Positions 8,419 to 27,821 of a stretch of DNA of 32,000 nucleotides are shown piece by piece. The notes under the pieces are model-generated. The model saw nothing but the letters and a program-made list of their open reading frames with translations, did no database searches and was not told the DNA's origin. Source of the DNA: Sinorhizobium meliloti (GTDB taxonomy: Bacteria > Pseudomonadota > Alphaproteobacteria > Rhizobiales > Rhizobiaceae); NCBI RefSeq assembly GCF_017876815.1, contig NZ_JAGIOS010000003.1, positions 1,170,001 to 1,202,000 of the forward strand. The letters are read 5' to 3'. Position numbers and translations under genes: made by a program. Each line of letters begins with the position of its first letter. The first letter of the stretch is position 1.

Positions 8419-8514
8419 TGGCGGAAGAGAATGGGAGTCGAACCCACCCAAGACAGCCTCGCTGCCCCACCCGGATTTGAAGTCCGGACATGCCACCGGG
8501 CATGATTCTCTTCC
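8419..8514 (-). tRNA. selC: tRNA-Sec (anticodon UCA), 96 nt including CCA
   Basis: Minus-strand sequence GGAAGAGAATCATGCCCGGTGGCATGTCCGGACTTCAAATCCGGGTGGGGCAGCGAGGCTGTCTTGGGTGGGTTCGACTCCCATTCTCTTCCGCCA. It has an 8-bp acceptor stem (GGAAGAGA/TCTCTTCC) and a 6-bp D stem (CATGCC/GGCATG) with a 4-nt loop. The 6-bp anticodon stem carries the loop CTTCAAA. There is a long variable arm and a 5-bp T stem with loop TTCGACT, giving the bacterial 8/5 Sec architecture. Confidence 0.93.
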
Positions 8515-18203: not shown

Positions 18204-19173
18204 CAGGCGTCCTCCCTGCGGCTCCGGCGCTATCGACGAGCCTTTCCGCACTCTCTTCGTCTTCCGGCTGCACACGATTGGCCCGGCCGAAGACGCCGTG
18301 GAGAATTGCCCCGGCGGCCACGAGACCCATTGCGGCGAGACCTGTGTATTTGGTCACACCCTTCCATGCCTGGACCACGGCGGAAATCTTCGGATCGTCG
18401 GGCAGATCGGAGTAGATGTGCGGCTTGTCGTTGTGATGCAGCACATACATCACATGCGTGCCGCCTACGCCCGGCGGATCGTAAAGGCCTGCATTCGTAT
18501 AACCGCGGGATTTGAGATCGGCGATGCGGTGTTCCGCATGCTTCTTCATATCCTCCTTCGTGCCGAACACGATCGCGTGGGTCGGACAGGCCTTGGCACA
18601 GGCCGGTCCCTGGCCGACGGCGACCCGATCGGAACAGAGGGTGCATTTGTAGGCGCGGTGATCGACTTTCGAGATGCGCGGAATGTTGAAGGGACAGCCC
18701 TTTATGCAATAGCCGCAGCCAATGCAGTTCTCGTGAACGAAATCCACGATGCCGTTCGAATACTGGACGATTGCGCCCGGCGCCGGGCAGGCTTTCAGGC
18801 ACCCCGGATCGGCGCAGTGCATGCAGCCGTCCTTGCGGATGAGCCATTCGAGATTGTCGGTCTCGGGATTGACCCACTCGGTAAAGCGCATGAGCGTGAA
18901 CATGTCCTCGGTGAGGTCATGGGGGTTGGTATAGTAGCCGACGTTTTCGCCGATCCCCGGATGCGTATCGTTCCACTCGACGCACGCAGACTGGCAGGCC
19001 TTGCAGCCGATGCACTTTGAGACGTCGATCAGCTTGGCGACGGGCGTGAGCTGCCGCTCGGGCGGCGGCAGCTCGGTGGTTGCCGAGCGGCGTACGAGAT
19101 CCCGCTCGGTAAGGTTGCTTTCCATCGGCTGGACCGGCGGATTGCTGACGGCGGTGCGAGGACTGTCCATCAT
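18181..19173 (-). CDS. fdoH: Formate dehydrogenase-N/O type, iron-sulfur beta subunit
   Basis: Four ferredoxin-type clusters: [58 protein letters not shown]. There is a C-terminal membrane anchor. The ATG overlaps the fdoG TGA (ATGA). Confidence 0.92.
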
Positions 19174-22100
19174 ACTCTAGCCTCCTCGGGCGCCGTCGAT
19201 GATTCGATATTGACCAGGAATGCTTTGTATTCCGGCGTTTCGATATTGGCGTCACCGACGAAAGGCGCGAGCGAGTTGGGGCCGAGGCCCTTTTTCGCCG
19301 AGCCGGTGAACCCCCAGTGAAGCGGAATGCCCACCACATGGACCGGCTTGCCGTCGCACATCAGCGGCCGGATGCGCTTGGTCACCACCGCCTTCGCCTT
19401 GACCGAACCACGCTTCGACCACACCCGGACCCAGCCGCCGTTTTCGATATTCTTCTCCTCTGCCAGTTCCTCGGAGATCTCGACGAAGAATTCCGGCTGA
19501 AGCGCGGAATTCACGCGGTTATGCTTGGTCCAGTAGTGGAAGTGTTCCGTCAGCCGGTAGGAAGTAGCCGCGTAAGGGAACTCGTCCGACAGCCCCATCT
19601 GCGCCACGTCCGTCTGAAAGACGCGGCTGACCGGGTTGCCCCGCATCTTCGGATTGAAGACGTTGGCGACGGGGGATTCGAAAGGCTCCATATGGGCCGG
19701 GAACGGCCCGTCCCGCATCAAACCGCGTGAAAACAGGCGTGCAGTCCCCTCCTGGTTCATGATGAACGGGCCGATTTCGTCCGGCTTTGCCGTAGGAGCA
19801 ATATCGGGCACATCGTAGCCCGCCCACTTCGTGCCATCCCACTCGAGCAGCTTACGTGAGGGATCCCACGGCTTGCCCTGCAAATCGGCCGAAGCACGAT
19901 TGTAGAGCGTGCGGCGATTAAGCGGCCAGGCGAATGACCAGCCGAGATAAGCGCCAGTGTCGTCCGGATCGTGGTTGTCGCGGCGGGCCATATTGTTGCC
20001 CTGCTCGTTGAAGTTGCCGGAATAGATCCAGCAACCGCACATGGTCGAACCGTCGTCCCTGAGTTGCGAGAAGTTCAGGATCTGCTTGCCGGCCGCGACC
20101 TGCACCTTCATCGGGTTGGCAGGATCCATGAGGTCCGTCAGTGCCCGACCGTTGATTTCCTTCGCCAGCTCCTCCGGCGTAGGTTCGTTCGGATCGGCAT
20201 AGTCCCATGACAAGTTCAGGATCGGATCGGGGAACGCGCCACCCTCGTTGCGATACATCTCCTTCATCCTGAGGAATATCTGGGCGACGATGTAAGTGTC
20301 GTGCTTTGCTTCGCCGGGGGGTGTTCCACCTGCCCAGTGCCACTGCAACCATCGGCCCGAGTTTGTCAGCGAGCCCTCTTCCTCCGCAAAGCAGGTCGTG
20401 GGCAGCTGGAACACCTCGGTCTGGATGGATGCGGTATCGACAGGGTTGAAGTCGCCATGGTTTTCCCAGAACCGTGCGGTCTCTGTGTCGAGCGGGTCCA
20501 TCGTGACGAGCCACTTCAGGTTCGACAGCGCCTTGGTGTTCTTGTCCCGGTTCGGGAAGGCAAGAAGTGGGTTGAAGCCCTGGCAGATGTAGCCATTGAC
20601 CTTGCCGGCATACATCAGCTCGAACACGCGAAGCACATCATAGGCCGGCACGTCGAGCTTGGAGAGGTAATTGAAGGCCCAGTCGTTGTCGATCCGGGCG
20701 GCATCCCCCCACATGGCCTTCTGGAAGGAGACCATGAACTTCCTGTAGTTCTGCCAGTAACTTGTCTGCCCTGGACGCAATGGTTTGAACTGGCGTGTCG
20801 ACATATAGGTCGTGAAATCCACGTCCTTTTCCGTCGGCATCGTCAGATACCCCGTGAGCAGATGCGACATTAGACCGAGGTCAGTCAGTCCCTGGATGTT
20901 GGAGTGGCCGCGAAGCGCGTTCATGCCGCCGCCGCGCACGCCGATATTGCCGAGGATGAGCTGCAGCATGGCCATGGCGCGGATGTTTTGCGAACCGCTG
21001 GAATGCTGGGTCCAGCCGAGCGCATACATCGACGTCATCGTCTTTGTCGGAGACGAGCATTCCGAGATCATCTCGGCAACCTTGAGGAACTTGTCCTTGG
21101 GCGTGCCGCAGATCCGTTCCACCATTTCCGGCGTATAGGGGGCGAGGTGCGCCTTCAGCAGATTCCAGACACAACGCGGGTGCTGGAGCGCCGGGTCAGT
21201 CACGACGAAGCCGTCGTCGCCGAGGACATAGTCCCACGTCGACTTGTCATAGTCGCGCTTTTCCGCGTCGTAGCCCGTGAAGAGGCCGTCCTGGTAGCCG
21301 AAGCCGTCCTTGACGAGATAGGAGGCGTTGGTGAACGCCTTCATATAGTCCCACTGCACCTTGTCGTTGTCGATGCAATACTTCATCACCCCGTTGAGGA
21401 AGGCGATGTCGGTTCCCTGACGGATGGGAGCGTAATAGTCGGATACGGACGCGGTGCGGGTATAGCGCGGATCGACCACGATCAGCTTCGCGCCCCGCGT
21501 GGCCTTCGCCTCGGTCACCCATTTGAAGCCGCAGGGATGCGCTTCGGCCGCATTGCCGCCCATGACGACTACGAGGTCGGTATTTTTGATGTCGGTCCAG
21601 GAGTTGGTCATCGCTCCACGGCCAAATGTTGGGCCCAAACTGGACACCGTAGGGCCGTGTCAGACGCGCGCCTGATTATCGAAACCGACTATTCCCAGAG
21701 CCTTGGCGAATTTGAAGGTCGCCCAAGCCGTTTCATTGGTGGTCGCCGACGCGGCGAGCATGCCGACCGTCGTCCAGCGATTGACCGGAACGCCTGCGGC
21801 ATTCGCCGCGACGAAATTGGCGTCGCGGTCATCCTTCATCAACCGTGCGATGCGGTCGAAAGCATCCTCCCAGGAGATACGCTCGAACTTATCCGAGCCC
21901 GGCTTGCGGTGCATCGGATACTGGAGACGGGTCGGGGACTTCACGAAGTCCTTGAGCGCCGCCCCCTTGGGACAGAGCGTACCGCGGTTGGTCGGATGAT
22001 CCGCATCGCCTTCGATGTGAATGATGTCGGCAGCCTCACCCTTGCGGAGGTCGCCCTTCGAATAGATGATGACGCCACAGGCGACGGAACAGTAGGGACA

Positions 22101-22259
22101 GGTGTTGCGCGTTTCGGTGGTCGTCGTCAGCTTGTGAGGCCGGACATGCGCGACGACCGCCGCCTCAGCCTCACCAAACCCCATCGCACCGAGTGACGTT
22201 GCCGCAGCCCCTGCTCCAGCCAGCTTCAAAAAGCTGCGCCGTGAGAGGTCTACATTCAT
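19170..22259 (-). CDS. fdoG: Formate dehydrogenase-N/O type, molybdopterin alpha subunit, selenocysteine-containing (in-frame UGA at 21660..21662)
   Basis: Track ORFs 21660..22274 and 19170..21647 share one frame and are joined by a single TGA. The junction reads [30 protein letters not shown], the conserved FdnG/FdoG active-site context. Tat leader [20 protein letters not shown]; the ATG at 22259 has GGAGG 8 nt upstream. The N-terminal 4Fe-4S motif is CPYCSVACG. Confidence 0.93.
21617..21659 (-). promoter_or_regulatory. Candidate SECIS stem-loop immediately 3' of the fdoG UGA
   Basis: The mRNA reads UGA-CACGGCCCUACGGUGUCCAGUUUGGGCCCAACAUUUGGCCGUG. The outer 7-bp stem is CACGGCC/GGCCGUG. An alternative inner hairpin pairs GGCCC/GGGCC around a small apical stem, ACGG-UGU-CC(A)GU. 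This was folded by eye only. Confidence 0.5.
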
Positions 22260-22417
22260 GGGAACAGCCTCCATCTCGTGTCAGCAACAATGGAGTCTAT
22301 GCCTCGACACCAGCAAGTCAAGGTGGAGTGATATCGTCAAAGAAAGCCGCCGCAGCGAGCGGAGGCGGGCATCCAGAGAGAGGACGCGCCTGTGTTGCGC
22401 GTCAGTTGCCGAATAAT

Positions 22418-22433
22418 GTTCCCCGCGGGGAAT
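22418..22433. promoter_or_regulatory. parS-like 16-bp palindrome, copy 1 (GTTCCCCGCGGGGAAT, 15/16)
   Basis: Matches the repABC centromere consensus GTTNNCNGCNGNNAAC except for the last base. It lies 9 bp from copy 2. Confidence 0.6.
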
Positions 22434-22442
22434 TCGGAGAGT

Positions 22443-22458
22443 GTTCCCCGCGGGGAAC
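22443..22458. promoter_or_regulatory. parS-like 16-bp palindrome, copy 2 (GTTCCCCGCGGGGAAC)
   Basis: Perfect palindrome, identical to copies 3-6; fits GTTNNCNGCNGNNAAC. Confidence 0.75.
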
Positions 22459-22761
22459 ATTGGAACCGTGGGACCAGTTCCGGTCCTAGCCGAGTGGTGG
22501 GTTGCCGCGCTCAGGAGTGGCGGAAGTTATCAGCACGATAGCTTCCATAAGGCCGTAAAATGTGTTTTTCTTCAATAACTTATAGCAGCCTCAGAAAACA
22601 CTCGTCATGCCCGTCCGACCAGCATCACAAACCTTACCTTAAGTCGGCCGGCTCCCGCAAACTGTAATTTCTCGGCCACTAATGCCACGGCTTTTGGAGC
22701 TGTCAGCGTGACCATTGCGCATCGCCGCAGTCGGATCTGCCGCTGTCTCGCTGTTTAGCTC

Positions 22762-22787
22762 GAAAGCCGAAAGCCGAAAGCCGAAGG
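22762..22787. repeat. Short tandem heptamer repeat (GAAAGCC x3 plus a partial unit)
   Basis: The sequence cgaaagccgaaagccgaaagccgaaggc was read directly in non-coding DNA between fdoG and repA. Confidence 0.6.
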
Positions 22788-23102
22788 CATATGTCTGGCC
22801 CTGCTCTAGCTCGCCGAGCGACTTGAGAGACAAGCTACGATTGGAATGATCAAAGTAGGTTCACCGCCGGTTCGCCGCCACGGATACACGCACCCAGCCG
22901 TGCGGCCTGACCACCCATGACGCCCTGCCCTCCTCTGTCAGCGGTCCGAGCGACCAGCGTCCTTCGCAAAGGCATGGGGTTCTTCGGGGGCCGATTAGAG
23001 GCAATCCTTCACGGGAAGGCTTCTACAGCAAAAGCCGGCTGCCGGGCCAATCGGCGCCGAGCGTGACTCTCGTCTTGCGGCGTTGTCGAGATCTCCTCCA
23101 AA

Positions 23103-23118
23103 GTTCCCCGCGGGGAAC
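23103..23118. promoter_or_regulatory. parS-like 16-bp palindrome, copy 3
   Basis: GTTCCCCGCGGGGAAC, perfect. Confidence 0.75.
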
Positions 23119-23219
23119 AGTTGAAGCTTGGCATTCGGCCGCACCTGAAGCGCCGGGAAAGTCAGACCCGCGGCAAAGTCGATCACCGTCTATTGGATCG
23201 CCACCTGGCCGCGAGTAGT

Positions 23220-23235
23220 GTTCCCCGCGGGGAAC
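23220..23235. promoter_or_regulatory. parS-like 16-bp palindrome, copy 4
   Basis: GTTCCCCGCGGGGAAC, perfect. Confidence 0.75.
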
Positions 23236-23592
23236 ACAGTCGTGCACGACGTTTTGCGCGACGGCGAATGAAGCCTCGGCAAGACCGTGAGAGAACGCCA
23301 AGTGAACCGTCGAGTTCCACCGCGGCGGTCGAGCAGGGCGGTAGTGCCGCGGCGACCGGCTTAAAAGAAGTTCCTATCGCAAGACATCGTCAGCCGCTCG
23401 ACACGATAGTCCGTCCAAAGGATACCGACACTCGTGCAACCAGCGTGTCCTTTAATGCGGCCGCACTTTCCCGCCTCAACAGGAAGTTTGCCTTTCACCG
23501 AAGCAACCGGGCCCGACATTTCGTCCTCTAGCGGCATCTCACACCCGCCGTAGATGATCGCATCAACGGAGCTACGGTTGGCACGCCGCCAA

Positions 23593-23608
23593 GTTCCCCG
23601 CGGGGAAC
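23593..23608. promoter_or_regulatory. parS-like 16-bp palindrome, copy 5
   Basis: GTTCCCCGCGGGGAAC, perfect. Confidence 0.75.
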
Positions 23609-23944
23609 GCTTGGCTTCACTCTTGTCTGAGGCAATCGTCTGGACGAAATCATATTACGGGAACAGGTCCTGCCGATTGCGAAATCTACGCAACCTTCAC
23701 CGCTACTCTAGTCTCGAGGCGCGGCCTATGCATTGTGTATCTCCGGCAACCTGTTCGCGCCAGAACGCCGCCGGCTTTCCGGCGGAGAATCATCCGATGC
23801 AGTCGTTGCTCGGTCATGGCCCACGAGATTGAGGCAGGCCGGAGCGCAGGCGAGCACCGAGATGCCGAGCTGTTCCCAATACGGCACATATGTCTCGCCT
23901 TGGCGAGCAGTCGGTACTGCGCGCCAGCGTCCGTCGCTTCGAGA

Positions 23945-23960
23945 GTTCCCCGCGGGGAAC
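23945..23960. promoter_or_regulatory. parS-like 16-bp palindrome, copy 6 (palindrome extends to 22 bp, AGAGTTCCCCGCGGGGAACTCT)
   Basis: GTTCCCCGCGGGGAAC, perfect, about 300 bp upstream of repA. Confidence 0.75.
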
Positions 23961-24256
23961 TCTGCGAAGAGTTCGGCAGATCTCCATTCAAAGCAACGGC
24001 CAACCATTTCCGCAGTGAACCACTATTGCGTCTCGGCCCAGCGACGTCTGCGCACATCTTCGTCCAAAAAGACGCGGGGAGGGTCGAGGACCGGCATGCA
24101 CTGGCGCCTTCCCACCGGCTCCGTGCGTCATCCACAGCGCGCATTGATGGCCATAGCCGAATCGGAGTACGTCTTAGTTGCGGAAATTTTTCGAATTTGC
24201 GTGTTTTCGAGTAGTTACGTGGCGATTAGCAAGCGGTTAACCACTTCACTGCTTAA

Positions 24257-25462
24257 GTGACGGAAACGATCACAGGGATTCTTTCGATGACGCGACACCT
24301 AAGCAGCCTCGCTTTCATGGAGAATTTTTCCAGTAAGCTCGAAATGGCACTGAACAACTTGAGCATGGCGCAGTTCCCCCCGAACGCGCGTCGCACAATG
24401 CGCAAGTTCACCTCTACCGAAGTTGCCACCCTGCTGGGCGTAACCGAGGCCTATATCCGCCAGGTTGCCGCCAAGGAACAGGGCCCTGAGCCCGAAATCG
24501 CCAACGGCCGGCGCTTCTACACGCTCGAGCAGGTTCTTGAACTACGTATGGCTCTTGCGGCAAACGGCCGGAAGAAATGGATGAATCCCCGCCGGACAGG
24601 CGATGAGCAATGCCAGATCGTTGCGGTCACCAACTTCAAGGGCGGCTCCAGCAAGACCTCTACCACAATCCATCTCGGTCACTATCTGGCACTCAAGGGC
24701 TATCGCGTGCTGGCGGTCGATCTCGACCCCCAAGCATCTCTCACCGCGCTCCATGGTAGCCTGCCGGAATTCGATTACCGTGGCGGTGATACACTTTTCT
24801 CAGCCATTCGTTTCGACGATCCCGTCCCGACGAAATCCATCATCCACAAGACCCACATCGTTGGTTTCGACGTCATCTGTGCCGGCCTCGAACTGACCGA
24901 GTTCGAGACGGCCGTCGCACTCGAGATGCGGCGGTCAGCAGGAACCGGTTTCTTGCTTCGCGTTTCTCAAGCTCTGGAGCAGGTCGCCGATGACTACGAC
25001 TTCGTCCTTATGGACTCGGCTCCGTCGCTGAACTTCCTGACACTTTCGTCGCTGACCGCCGCGACTGGGGTCATCATCCCGGTTCCGGCACATATGCTGG
25101 ATGTGGACTCGACCGCAAAGTTTTTGGAGCTTGCCGGGTCGTACATGCAGATCCTGAATGAGGTGGGGACCGCCGCTCAATGGGACTTCGCCAAGTTCCT
25201 GATCACAAAGTTCGAGCCGAACGATCATCCGCAAGCGAATATGTCCGCGCTGATGAGACAGGTGTTCGGCGAGGATCTGCTCCTCAACTCCGTCATCAAG
25301 TCGACCGCGGTGGCCGATGCTCTGACGTGGAAGCAGAGCCTTTACGAGGTTCAGAGGTCCCGATTTTCGGCGCCGAAAACCTACGACCGCGCCATCGAGT
25401 CGATCAATGCTGCCAATGCTGAACTCGAGGGCCTCTTCTGGAAGGCATGGGGGAGAGAATGA
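24257..25462 (+). CDS. repA: Plasmid partitioning ATPase RepA (ParA family)
   Basis: Deviant Walker A KGGSSKTSTT, VLAVDLDPQASLT, and an N-terminal HTH-like segment. The start is uncertain (GTG at 24257 or ATG at 24287). The stop overlaps the repB ATG. Confidence 0.9.
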   Translation: MTETITGILSMTRHLSSLAFMENFSSKLEMALNNLSMAQFPPNARRTMRKFTSTEVATLLGVTEAYIRQVAAKEQGPEPEIANGRRFYTLEQVLELRMALAANGRKKWMNPRRTGDEQCQIVAVTNFKGGSSKTSTTIHLGHYLALKGYRVLAVDLDPQASLTALHGSLPEFDYRGGDTLFSAIRFDDPVPTKSIIHKTHIVGFDVICAGLELTEFETAVALEMRRSAGTGFLLRVSQALEQVADDYDFVLMDSAPSLNFLTLSSLTAATGVIIPVPAHMLDVDSTAKFLELAGSYMQILNEVGTAAQWDFAKFLITKFEPNDHPQANMSALMRQVFGEDLLLNSVIKSTAVADALTWKQSLYEVQRSRFSAPKTYDRAIESINAANAELEGLFWKAWGRE

Positions 25463-26460
25463 GCCGCAAGGATTCCAAGGGCCTTTTTGCCAATGTCCTG
25501 GGACAGCTGGAAAATTCTGCAGAGAAGGGCGGGATGCAGCGGTCGACATCGCCACATCTTCTCAAAGTTGCAGCCGGCGTCCGTCAGATGCAGGAACGCA
25601 GCGAACTTGCCGAACGCCTTCTCAAGGATGGTGGCCAGATCGTCGAGATCGATCCAGACGAGATCATGGAATCGGCCATCCGGGATCGCTTTGATTCCGG
25701 CTACAGCGAAGCCGGTATTGCGGATTTGCTCGAGTCGATGCGCGAGCATGGACAGAGTACTCCTGGCTTGGTCCGCCCGGTTCGAGGGGCCGCAAGGCCG
25801 TTTCAGATCGTATTTGGCCGGCGCCGGCTTGCCGCTGCCAAACTCCTCGGCATCAAGTTCAAGGCAATCGCCCGGGAACTTAGCGACGAAGATGCGATCG
25901 TTCTCCAAGGGGAAGAGAACAGCAACCGCAAGGACCTGTCCTTCATCGAACGATGCCTTTTTGCGCAATCGCAGGAGGCTGCCGGCTATCGCCGCGACGT
26001 GATCTGCAAGTCCCTGAGCACCGGCAGGTCGCATATCTCCGAAATGATCCGGATAGCGGCAGCATTGCCGCGCGAGATCCTGATGCAGATTGGTCCGGCT
26101 CCTGAAATCGGACGGCGCAGGTGGATCGAGTTCGAAGTGCGCTGGGCGGCTCACCGGGAGCCCGCGAAGGTGGCGCAGTTGGTTCTGGAGCAAGACCAGA
26201 TTCAAGCCTCTTCCAGCGAGCTACGCTTCGCTGCGGTTTTTGAAGCGCTTACCAAGGCGGATGTAAAGGCTGCAGCGTCTTCCACAACCGATCTGATCTC
26301 TCATGGCCTCGTGCTTGGCCAGATCCAACACGGCAAGTCGGCTGCGAAGCTGACATTCAACAAGTCTGTGCCTTCAGGCTTTGTCGATTTCATTGCAGGT
26401 CAGATCGAAAGCCTGCACGACCAGTTCATGCAAAAGCAGAATTCGAAACAAGGAGACTAA
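25459..26460 (+). CDS. repB: Plasmid partitioning protein RepB (ParB family)
   Basis: ParB-box region HGQSTPGLVRPV...FQIVFGRRRLAAAKLLG, with an HTH further on. The ATG at 25459 overlaps the repA TGA (ATGA) and follows GGGAGAG. The track alternative is the ATG at 25447. Confidence 0.88.
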   Translation: MSRKDSKGLFANVLGQLENSAEKGGMQRSTSPHLLKVAAGVRQMQERSELAERLLKDGGQIVEIDPDEIMESAIRDRFDSGYSEAGIADLLESMREHGQSTPGLVRPVRGAARPFQIVFGRRRLAAAKLLGIKFKAIARELSDEDAIVLQGEENSNRKDLSFIERCLFAQSQEAAGYRRDVICKSLSTGRSHISEMIRIAAALPREILMQIGPAPEIGRRRWIEFEVRWAAHREPAKVAQLVLEQDQIQASSSELRFAAVFEALTKADVKAAASSTTDLISHGLVLGQIQHGKSAAKLTFNKSVPSGFVDFIAGQIESLHDQFMQKQNSKQGD

Positions 26461-26465
26461 CCCGC

Positions 26466-26503
26466 AAAAGAAAAAGGCCCCCAACGAACAAGCCGTGGAA
26501 GCC
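26466..26503 (-). terminator. Rho-independent terminator of the candidate ctRNA
   Basis: Minus-strand RNA GGCUUCCACGGCUUGUUCGUUGGGGGCC forms 7 bp (including 2 G-U) plus 3 bp with one bulged U and a 7-nt loop. It is followed by UUUUUCUUUU. There is no U-tract on the plus strand. Confidence 0.65.
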
Positions 26504-26520
26504 TTCCTCAGATTTGTAGC
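26466..26520 (-). ncRNA. Candidate repABC counter-transcribed RNA (ctRNA / inc-alpha) in the repB-repC intergenic region
   Basis: Minus-strand promoter-like TTGACT (26551..26556), 17-nt spacer, GATTCT (26528..26533). About 55 nt downstream is a strand-specific intrinsic terminator. Position, size and orientation match what is known for repABC operons. Confidence 0.6.
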
Positions 26521-26615
26521 AAGATCGAGAATCGCATTTCCACGAATCACAGTCAAGAGTCCTTGGCACCGTTTTTGGTGAGCTGCTTTCTTTTGCCTAA
26601 TCGAAGGTGAAGGAA

Positions 26616-27821
26616 ATGGAAAGTGGAAGTGTGACGACGCCCTTTGGGCGGCGGTCGATGACGCTTGCCTTGTTGGCAGGCCAGTTCATCTCCCGCGACA
26701 TCGAACCTGGAAAGTCGGTCGACAAGTGGAAACTGTTTCGCTCGCTTTGTGCGGCCAAACGCCGGCTCGGCATCAGCGATCGGACGCTGGCCGTTCTGAA
26801 CGCGCTGTTGAGCTTCTATCCGGAGAACACGCTAAGCGGAGAGACCAGTCTGGTCGTCTTTCCCTCGAACGTTCAGCTGTCACTGAGAGCTCATGGGATG
26901 GCCGAGGCTACGCTCAGAAGGCATCTGGCCGCCCTCGTCGATGCAGGCCTGGTCGCTCGCAAGGACAGTCCGAACGGCAAGCGCTATGCACGCAAGACTC
27001 GCGATGGAGCGATCGGCACAGCATTCGGCTTTTCGCTCGCACCGCTTTTGGCCCGCTCCGGCGAAATAGAGCGACTCGCGGCCGAAGCCGAGGCTGATCG
27101 GATCGAGCTGCAGCGGCTACGCGAGCGACTGACGCTCTGCCGCAGAGACATCGCCAAGTTGATAGACGTGGTGCTCGAAGAACTGCCCGGCGACTGGACG
27201 TCTCTGCAGGAAGATTTCCGAAGCCTCGTCCAGGCTATACCGAGGACGCCCGATATCGCTGATCTCACCGCTTTGGTAGAGGCGTTCGAAACGCTGCGCG
27301 AACAGGTGGCTAACCAATTGCAAACGCGCATAAAACTCCAAGAGATGAGCGGCAATCCCGATCAAACTGAGCGGCACAAACAGGAATCAAAACCCGAATC
27401 TATTATTGAACTTGAACGTTGCCCTCGGAATGAGCGGTCAGACGGCCAGGCCGGTGAACCGGCTCACGAGGCAAAAAGGGCCTTTCCGCTGGGAATGGTA
27501 CTGAAAGCCTGCCCGGAAATCATGAACTACGGTCCTGACGGTGCGGTGAGAAGTTGGCGCGACCTTATGATCGCTGCGGTTACGGTACGATCTATGCTTG
27601 GCGTTTACCCCTCGGCCTATCAGGAGGCCTGCGAGGTCATGGGACCAGAAAACGCCGGGGTCGCCGTTGCCTGCATCCTGGAGAGGGCAGGGCATATCAA
27701 CTCTGCTGGCGGGTATCTGCGCGATCTGACCGGCAAAGCGCGGCAAGGGAAATTCTCGCTCGGCCCGATGCTGATGGCGTTGCTCAGGGCGAATGGCTTC
27801 GACAGGCGGGGGGTGTTGTGA
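26616..27821 (+). CDS. repC: Replication initiator RepC
   Basis: RepC signature region RTLAVLNALLSFYPE...VVFPSNVQLSLRAHGMAEATLRRHLAALVDAGLVARKDSPNGKRYA. The ATG at 26616 follows AAGGTGAAGGA. The track start is the GTG at 26607. Confidence 0.9.
   Translation: MESGSVTTPFGRRSMTLALLAGQFISRDIEPGKSVDKWKLFRSLCAAKRRLGISDRTLAVLNALLSFYPENTLSGETSLVVFPSNVQLSLRAHGMAEATLRRHLAALVDAGLVARKDSPNGKRYARKTRDGAIGTAFGFSLAPLLARSGEIERLAAEAEADRIELQRLRERLTLCRRDIAKLIDVVLEELPGDWTSLQEDFRSLVQAIPRTPDIADLTALVEAFETLREQVANQLQTRIKLQEMSGNPDQTERHKQESKPESIIELERCPRNERSDGQAGEPAHEAKRAFPLGMVLKACPEIMNYGPDGAVRSWRDLMIAAVTVRSMLGVYPSAYQEACEVMGPENAGVAVACILERAGHINSAGGYLRDLTGKARQGKFSLGPMLMALLRANGFDRRGVL
27305..27420. other. Candidate oriV (A+T-rich segment inside repC)
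   Basis: This is locally the most AT-rich stretch of repC (taaccaattgcaaacgcgcataaaactccaagag...caggaatcaaaacccgaatctattattgaacttgaacgtt). In studied repABC replicons the origin lies within repC in such a region. Confidence 0.35.

Follow-up and report, generated by a model that had tools for sequence, protein, structure and literature searches.

Six parS repeats have been described upstream of repA2 in the Sinorhizobium meliloti megaplasmid pSymA (MacLellan et al., 2006, Mol Microbiol 59:1559, as cited in PMC9040568). The same six sites of strain Rm1021 are listed by Czarnecki et al. (2022; PMC9040568), whose Table S1 places all of them upstream of repA, at positions -1883, -1859, -1171, -1054, -681 and -327 for sites 1 to 6 in order, and flags site 1 (-1883) and site 4 (-1054) as 'degenerated parS'. 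Each whole plasmid was searched in that work with a tolerance of one mismatch, and no pSymA site is listed outside the region upstream of repA. As the 2006 experiments are summarised in later papers, point mutations in the pSymA parS sites reduced RepB binding and impeded incompatibility (PMC6090056), the repA-proximal parS alone stabilised a repAB test plasmid, and addition of the other five destabilised it (PMC9040568). The authors of the latter paper caution that mini-plasmid assays may not mirror a 1.4-Mb replicon.

In this study, we analysed a window of S. meliloti DNA, by which we mean the whole stretch of 32,000 bases, in which six copies of a 16-bp palindrome lie in front of a repABC operon. 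It is almost certain, in our judgement, that they form the parS centromere array of the pSymA repABC (repA2B2C2) replicon. The six palindromes are thus the already published pSymA centromere, and the original prediction, which had read them as a RepB-binding parS centromere, was correct but not new. The significance of the array as a finding is small, since experiments had already identified this centromere in 2006 and it was catalogued again in 2022; it is nevertheless a real cis-acting element that could be recognised from the sequence alone. The Rm1021 array is this very locus: its six sites keep their order and flanking sequences, their spacings agree within about 30 bp, and the repA-upstream region is 95.9 % identical to that of the window. 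The difference is only allelic: site 4 reads GTTCCCCGCGGGGTAC in Rm1021 and is a perfect palindrome in the window, which is of the SM11/Rm41 type, so that the window has five perfect sites and one imperfect site compared with four and two in Rm1021. To recover the Rm1021 sites, both ends of the record NC_003037.1 had to be joined, as its start/end junction falls inside site 5 and a linear scan of the record therefore misses one parS.

A mismatch-tolerant search of both strands of the 32,000 bases returned five exact copies of GTTCCCCGCGGGGAAC, namely site 2 (22443–22458), site 3 (23103–23118), site 4 (23220–23235), site 5 (23593–23608) and site 6 (23945–23960), and a single copy with one mismatch, GTTCCCCGCGGGGAAT, in which the terminal base departs. 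This repA-distal copy is site 1 (22418–22433), and it pairs with site 2 as a doublet, the two starts being 25 bp apart. Site 6 is the repA-proximal copy; its palindrome reaches 22 bp (AGAGTTCCCCGCGGGGAACTCT) and 326 bp separate its end from the repA ATG. No further copy was found on either strand of the window at up to two mismatches, and at up to three mismatches the search still gave the same six. The chance expectation at up to two mismatches is 0.03 copies in 32,000 bases, and none of 100 shuffled sequences reached six. The number and places of the copies, their irregular start-to-start spacings (25, 660, 117, 373 and 352 bp on recomputation) and the absence of others from the window had all been given in the original prediction, and all were reproduced. 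The fit to the repABC parS consensus that it proposed also holds, as the five perfect copies match both published forms, GTTNNCNGCNGNNAAC and GTTNNNNGCNNNNAAC, exactly, while the sixth is off by its last base; the looser form, GTTNNNNGCNNNNAAC, matches only these five copies in the window. All copies have in common a core of only 16–19 bp, and their flanks differ. We looked around the six sites for longer repeat units, as a sign of segment duplication, and found none beyond this core, which argues that the sites were not made by duplicating longer blocks.

The array lies within a 2.0-kb interval (22275–24286), which holds it completely and which had been described beforehand as an ORF-poor region of about 2 kb between fdoG and repA; the two borders found here, the fdoG start codon at 22274 and the repA ATG at 24287, bear this out. 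On the plus strand, repA (24287–25462) encodes a ParA-family partition ATPase (Pfam AAA_31, CbiA and MipZ), and this gene is annotated as repA in CP050559.1. The longest ORF begins with GTG at 24257; however, position 1 of the SM11 record and the annotated repA of CP050559.1 place the true start at the ATG of position 24287. It is followed on the same strand by repB (25447–26460), which encodes a ParB-family centromere-binding protein (Pfam RepB PF07506 and ParB_N PF02195), and by repC (26607–27821), which encodes the replication initiator (RP-C and RP-C_C). The repABC context is complete, in that Rfam detects between repB and repC a ctRNA on the minus strand (26464–26508; RF00489, ctRNA_p42d, 53.6 bits), the antisense regulator of repC known as incA in pSymA, and on the plus strand an S-element upstream of repC (26551–26618; RF00490, 73.7 bits). 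The whole 2-kb interval is 100 % identical in the pSymA-type megaplasmids of S. meliloti SM11, Rm41 and others, and RepB is 98–100 % identical across the replicons that carry the same spacer; based on these identities we assign the window to the replication and partition region of pSymA. On the other side of the interval, the gene for the formate dehydrogenase alpha subunit (fdoG/fdnG-like; 19170–22274, minus strand) encodes a selenoprotein: two ORFs, 19170–21647 and 21660–22274, are separated by an in-frame TGA, which is overlapped by an Rfam SECIS_3 element (21607–21665, minus strand). A tRNA-Sec gene (8423–8514, minus strand) is located in the same window, and selA, selB and selD are annotated nearby in related records.

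The interval that carries the array is non-coding, judging from its lack of codon-position periodicity in G+C (GC3) and from the 47 gap blocks between the aligned strains, of which 43 have a length that is not divisible by three and hence break any reading frame. In addition, the gene tables of the plasmid records, which omit pseudogenes and RNA genes, list no features in it, and its ORFs gave no match to Pfam domains. Its G+C content is 53–63 %, and its identity across 63 Sinorhizobium plasmids is 86–100 %. A heptanucleotide microsatellite (CGAAAGC, about four repeats; gctcgaaagccgaaagccgaaagccgaaggc) is present at 22757–22790 between sites 2 and 3. The last 170 bp or so before the repA ATG (24120–24286) have the lowest G+C content of the region, about 44–53 %, and contain a small palindrome, AAGCGGTTAACCACTT, with the core GGTTAACC at 24235–24242, which is a candidate promoter or RepA operator. 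A simple promoter scan of 24120–24286 gave no match, and promoter and terminator scans returned nothing interpretable for repA.

The original prediction had proposed that the motif be sought across the whole replicon, and had named scattering at similar density, as expected of a generic repeat, as the result that would speak against it. For this we used the complete 416,269-bp 'accessoryA' replicon of S. meliloti M162, to which our whole-replicon scan was confined. M162 accessoryA has the same locus, with a spacer that is 89.9 % identical and a RepB that is 98.8 % identical, and it contains four exact copies of GTTCCCCGCGGGGAAC, all of them within 1.5 kb upstream of repA. In the remaining 414 kb or so there is no copy at zero to two mismatches, and the MacLellan-type consensus finds the same four copies and no others. 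This replicon (NZ_CP021821.1) holds a pSymA-type repABC operon and parS array together with fdn/sel and rhizobactin genes, and it is possibly a pSymA that has been reduced or split, rather than an unrelated accessory plasmid. A wider scan for the exact 16-mer covered 596 Gb of species-representative genomes and gave at least 120 loci, for each of which 8 kb were fetched. Among the matches listed, 30 of the 34 loci with two or more exact copies have a RepA, RepB, RepC or ParA homologue within these 8 kb, compared with 6 of the 87 single-copy loci (Fisher p = 3e-18), and in unrelated phyla the frequency of single copies is about what chance predicts for any 16-mer in 596 Gb (some 140 expected). 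The representative genome of S. meliloti is not among the matches listed.

Taken together, the flanking repABC genes, the match to the consensus, the confinement of the motif and the association of multi-copy loci with partition genes support the reading of the six palindromes as the RepB-binding centromere of this replicon, and nothing among our results contradicts it. The sequence, gene context, confinement and partition-gene association come from the present analysis; for RepB binding, incompatibility and stabilisation we rely on the literature, and for binding in particular on the account of the 2006 mutants given in PMC6090056. According to the standard account of type Ia partition, RepB dimers, encoded about 1.5 kb downstream of the array, would recognise each 16-bp palindrome, and the ParA-type ATPase RepA would then move the RepB–parS complexes apart, so that each daughter cell would receive a copy of this low-copy replicon of 1.4–1.6 Mb. 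Extra sites supplied in trans would titrate the partition system, resulting in incompatibility. As the sites lie upstream of repA, RepA and RepB bound at parS probably also help to autorepress the operon, and particular sites may have a regulatory role. RepB belongs with the proteins that have a ParB_N domain (PF02195), and it carries an arginine-rich sequence, GRRRLAAA, at about residues 124–131. An arginine-rich GxRRxxA-like motif in the N-terminal domain of ParB proteins serves in CTP binding. By analogy with other ParB proteins, RepB might therefore load at the sites and spread from them in a CTP-dependent manner, although we found no report of CTP binding or sliding by pSymA RepB in the literature cited here.

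What the comparison of strains adds is that the six sites are unevenly kept in natural populations. The comparison took in nine pSymA-type alleles, with spacer differences of up to 14 %: those of the window, Rm1021, BL225C, T073, USDA1106, M270, RMO17, R14 and M162. Sites 3, 5 and 6 are invariant in all nine. Site 1 is the same degenerate copy in five (the window, Rm1021, BL225C, T073 and USDA1106) and a perfect palindrome in the other four (M270, RMO17, R14 and M162), while site 2 is present in eight, the exception being M162 accessoryA, where one site replaces the doublet formed by sites 1 and 2. Site 4 is perfect only in the window and in BL225C; the remaining seven strains show four different lesions, GGGTAC in Rm1021 and USDA1106, TTTCCCC in T073, GTTTCCC in RMO17 and R14, and a 2-bp deletion in M270 and M162. 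Overall, the strains retain the array, though not uniformly, as sites 3, 5 and 6 are invariant while sites 1, 2 and 4 vary. When all six sites are pooled, invariant columns make up a fraction of 0.74, which does not exceed the 0.75 of the spacer, and it is only the comparison site by site that is informative. Only 9.2 % of the background 16-column windows in the nine-strain alignment are fully invariant, which gives a probability of about 0.013 for three of the six sites being so; the stronger conservation seen at sites 3, 5 and 6 is only modestly significant.

These observations bear on a question that the literature raises about large repABC replicons: why are parS sites multiplied upstream of repA when one of them suffices on a mini-plasmid? 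The uneven conservation and the mini-plasmid result suggest that not all six sites work as a centromere. Only part of the array might do so, site 6 and perhaps the invariant sites 3 and 5, with the other sites being redundant, decaying or regulatory, in the sense of tuning repABC transcription or RepB loading; this would refine the parS reading and not replace it, and we consider it a serious possibility, somewhat short of an even chance. In its favour are the stabilisation of a repAB plasmid by the repA-proximal parS and the destabilisation by the other five, as reported at second hand in PMC9040568, the four separate lesions of site 4, the single site that stands for the distal doublet in M162, and the specialisation of parS sites that has been proposed for other repABC replicons (PMC9040568). 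On the other hand, the caution about mini-plasmids quoted above applies here, at least four perfect copies persist in every one of the nine strains, and four strains have a perfect site 1 against five with an imperfect one, which indicates upkeep or repair of the sites rather than simple loss. The five distal sites also qualify the gain that the original prediction had implied for a larger array, since according to the summary in PMC9040568 they destabilised the test plasmid. In such a divided array, sites 3, 5 and 6 may be the working centromere, and site 4 and the distal doublet may be free to decay, to be repaired or to tune RepB loading or repABC expression.

A second alternative is that the palindromes act mainly as operators through which RepA and RepB autorepress repABC, and not as a segregation centromere. 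A role of repA-upstream parS sites in controlling repABC transcription has been put forward and tested in Rhizobiales (PMC9040568), and a contribution of the sites to autorepression is plausible. However, classical operators would not be expected at the distance of five of the six sites, 0.7–1.9 kb upstream of repA, and this makes a purely regulatory role unlikely; even the nearest site ends 326 bp before the ATG, and a simple promoter scan placed no sigma-70-like promoter beside any of the sites on the repA strand. Furthermore, stabilisation and partition-type incompatibility have been reported for these sites, as far as the 2006 work is represented in PMC9040568 and PMC6090056. We therefore give this explanation very little credence. 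That the motif is a generic dispersed repeat which happens to be dense here by chance has next to no probability: as an intergenic, G+C-rich perfect palindrome it does resemble a REP or BIME element, but the unit is only 16–19 bp with no flanks in common, the scans of the window, of M162 accessoryA and, in published form, of Rm1021 pSymA (PMC9040568) refute dispersal, and multi-copy loci adjoin partition genes while single copies among the matches listed are near the chance rate.

Returning to the centromere reading, the 16-mer itself is also found with partition proteins that have diverged considerably. Across ten replicons that share the identical 16-mer, RepB is overall only about 50–71 % identical, with residues 1–20 and 121–200 well conserved and the C-terminus diverged, and GRRRLAAA is conserved among them; this pattern fits a conserved DNA-recognition module. 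Rhizobium/Ensifer contigs with two or three identical 16-mers upstream of repA encode a RepA that is 78–92 % identical to that of pSymA, but a RepB with only 50–71 % identity. In many contigs of Rhodobacterales, one of them a complete 156-kb Limimaricola plasmid, the identical 16-mer is present two to four times, both beside and within a ParA/ParB gene pair, and the 8 kb fetched at these loci gave no sign of a RepC. The ParA proteins at these loci are only 27–29 % identical to pSymA RepA, so that very distant partition systems use the same centromere sequence. An identical 16-mer combined with such a ParA, or in other replicons with a RepB of only 50–57 % identity, suggests a reusable centromere allele, with possible incompatibility across replicons. 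We put forward only tentatively, and with a little less conviction than the partial centromere considered above, the combined proposal that the array is functionally divided and that, separately, its 16-mer is a reusable centromere allele. Either, if true, would be an extension of a known system and not a new kind of system.

Chromosomal ParABS systems have several parS sites near oriC, and their ParB is a CTP-dependent sliding clamp, a property that pSymA RepB may share. Like the pSymA locus, they combine multiple 16-bp palindromes near an origin, a ParB_N reader with an arginine-rich motif and a ParA-family ATPase; they differ in the sequence of the site, and the pSymA partition genes are in one operon with the replication initiator. 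The original prediction had singled out the array as resembling such multi-site chromosomal centromeres and as unusual for a repABC replicon, and whereas the resemblance stands, the array is not unusual among large repABC replicons. The 3parS locus of the Paracoccus aminophilus plasmid pAMI4 is likewise a long non-coding region with several RepB-bound parS sites and is needed for partition of this repABC megaplasmid; however, it is AT-rich and lies beyond repC, 11.5 kb further downstream (PMC9040568), whereas the pSymA array is directly upstream of repA and its spacer, at 53–63 % G+C, shows no such AT-rich character. Closer counterparts are other large repABC replicons, those of Rhizobium rhizogenes K84 and Agrobacterium tumefaciens C58 chromosome 2, in which, as in pSymA, parS is multiplied upstream of repA and is missing between repA and repB (PMC9040568). 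K84 chromosome 2 has the identical 16-mer, at two sites within about 210 bp of repA (PMC9040568, Table S1). In A. tumefaciens, ChIP-seq shows that the RepB of chromosome 2 binds its four clustered parS2 sites, and this protein is modelled as spreading nearby (PMC9239152). With two sites in K84, four parS2 sites in C58 chromosome 2 and six over 1.5 kb in pSymA, the array described here takes its place among the multiplied repA-upstream centromeres of large repABC replicons.
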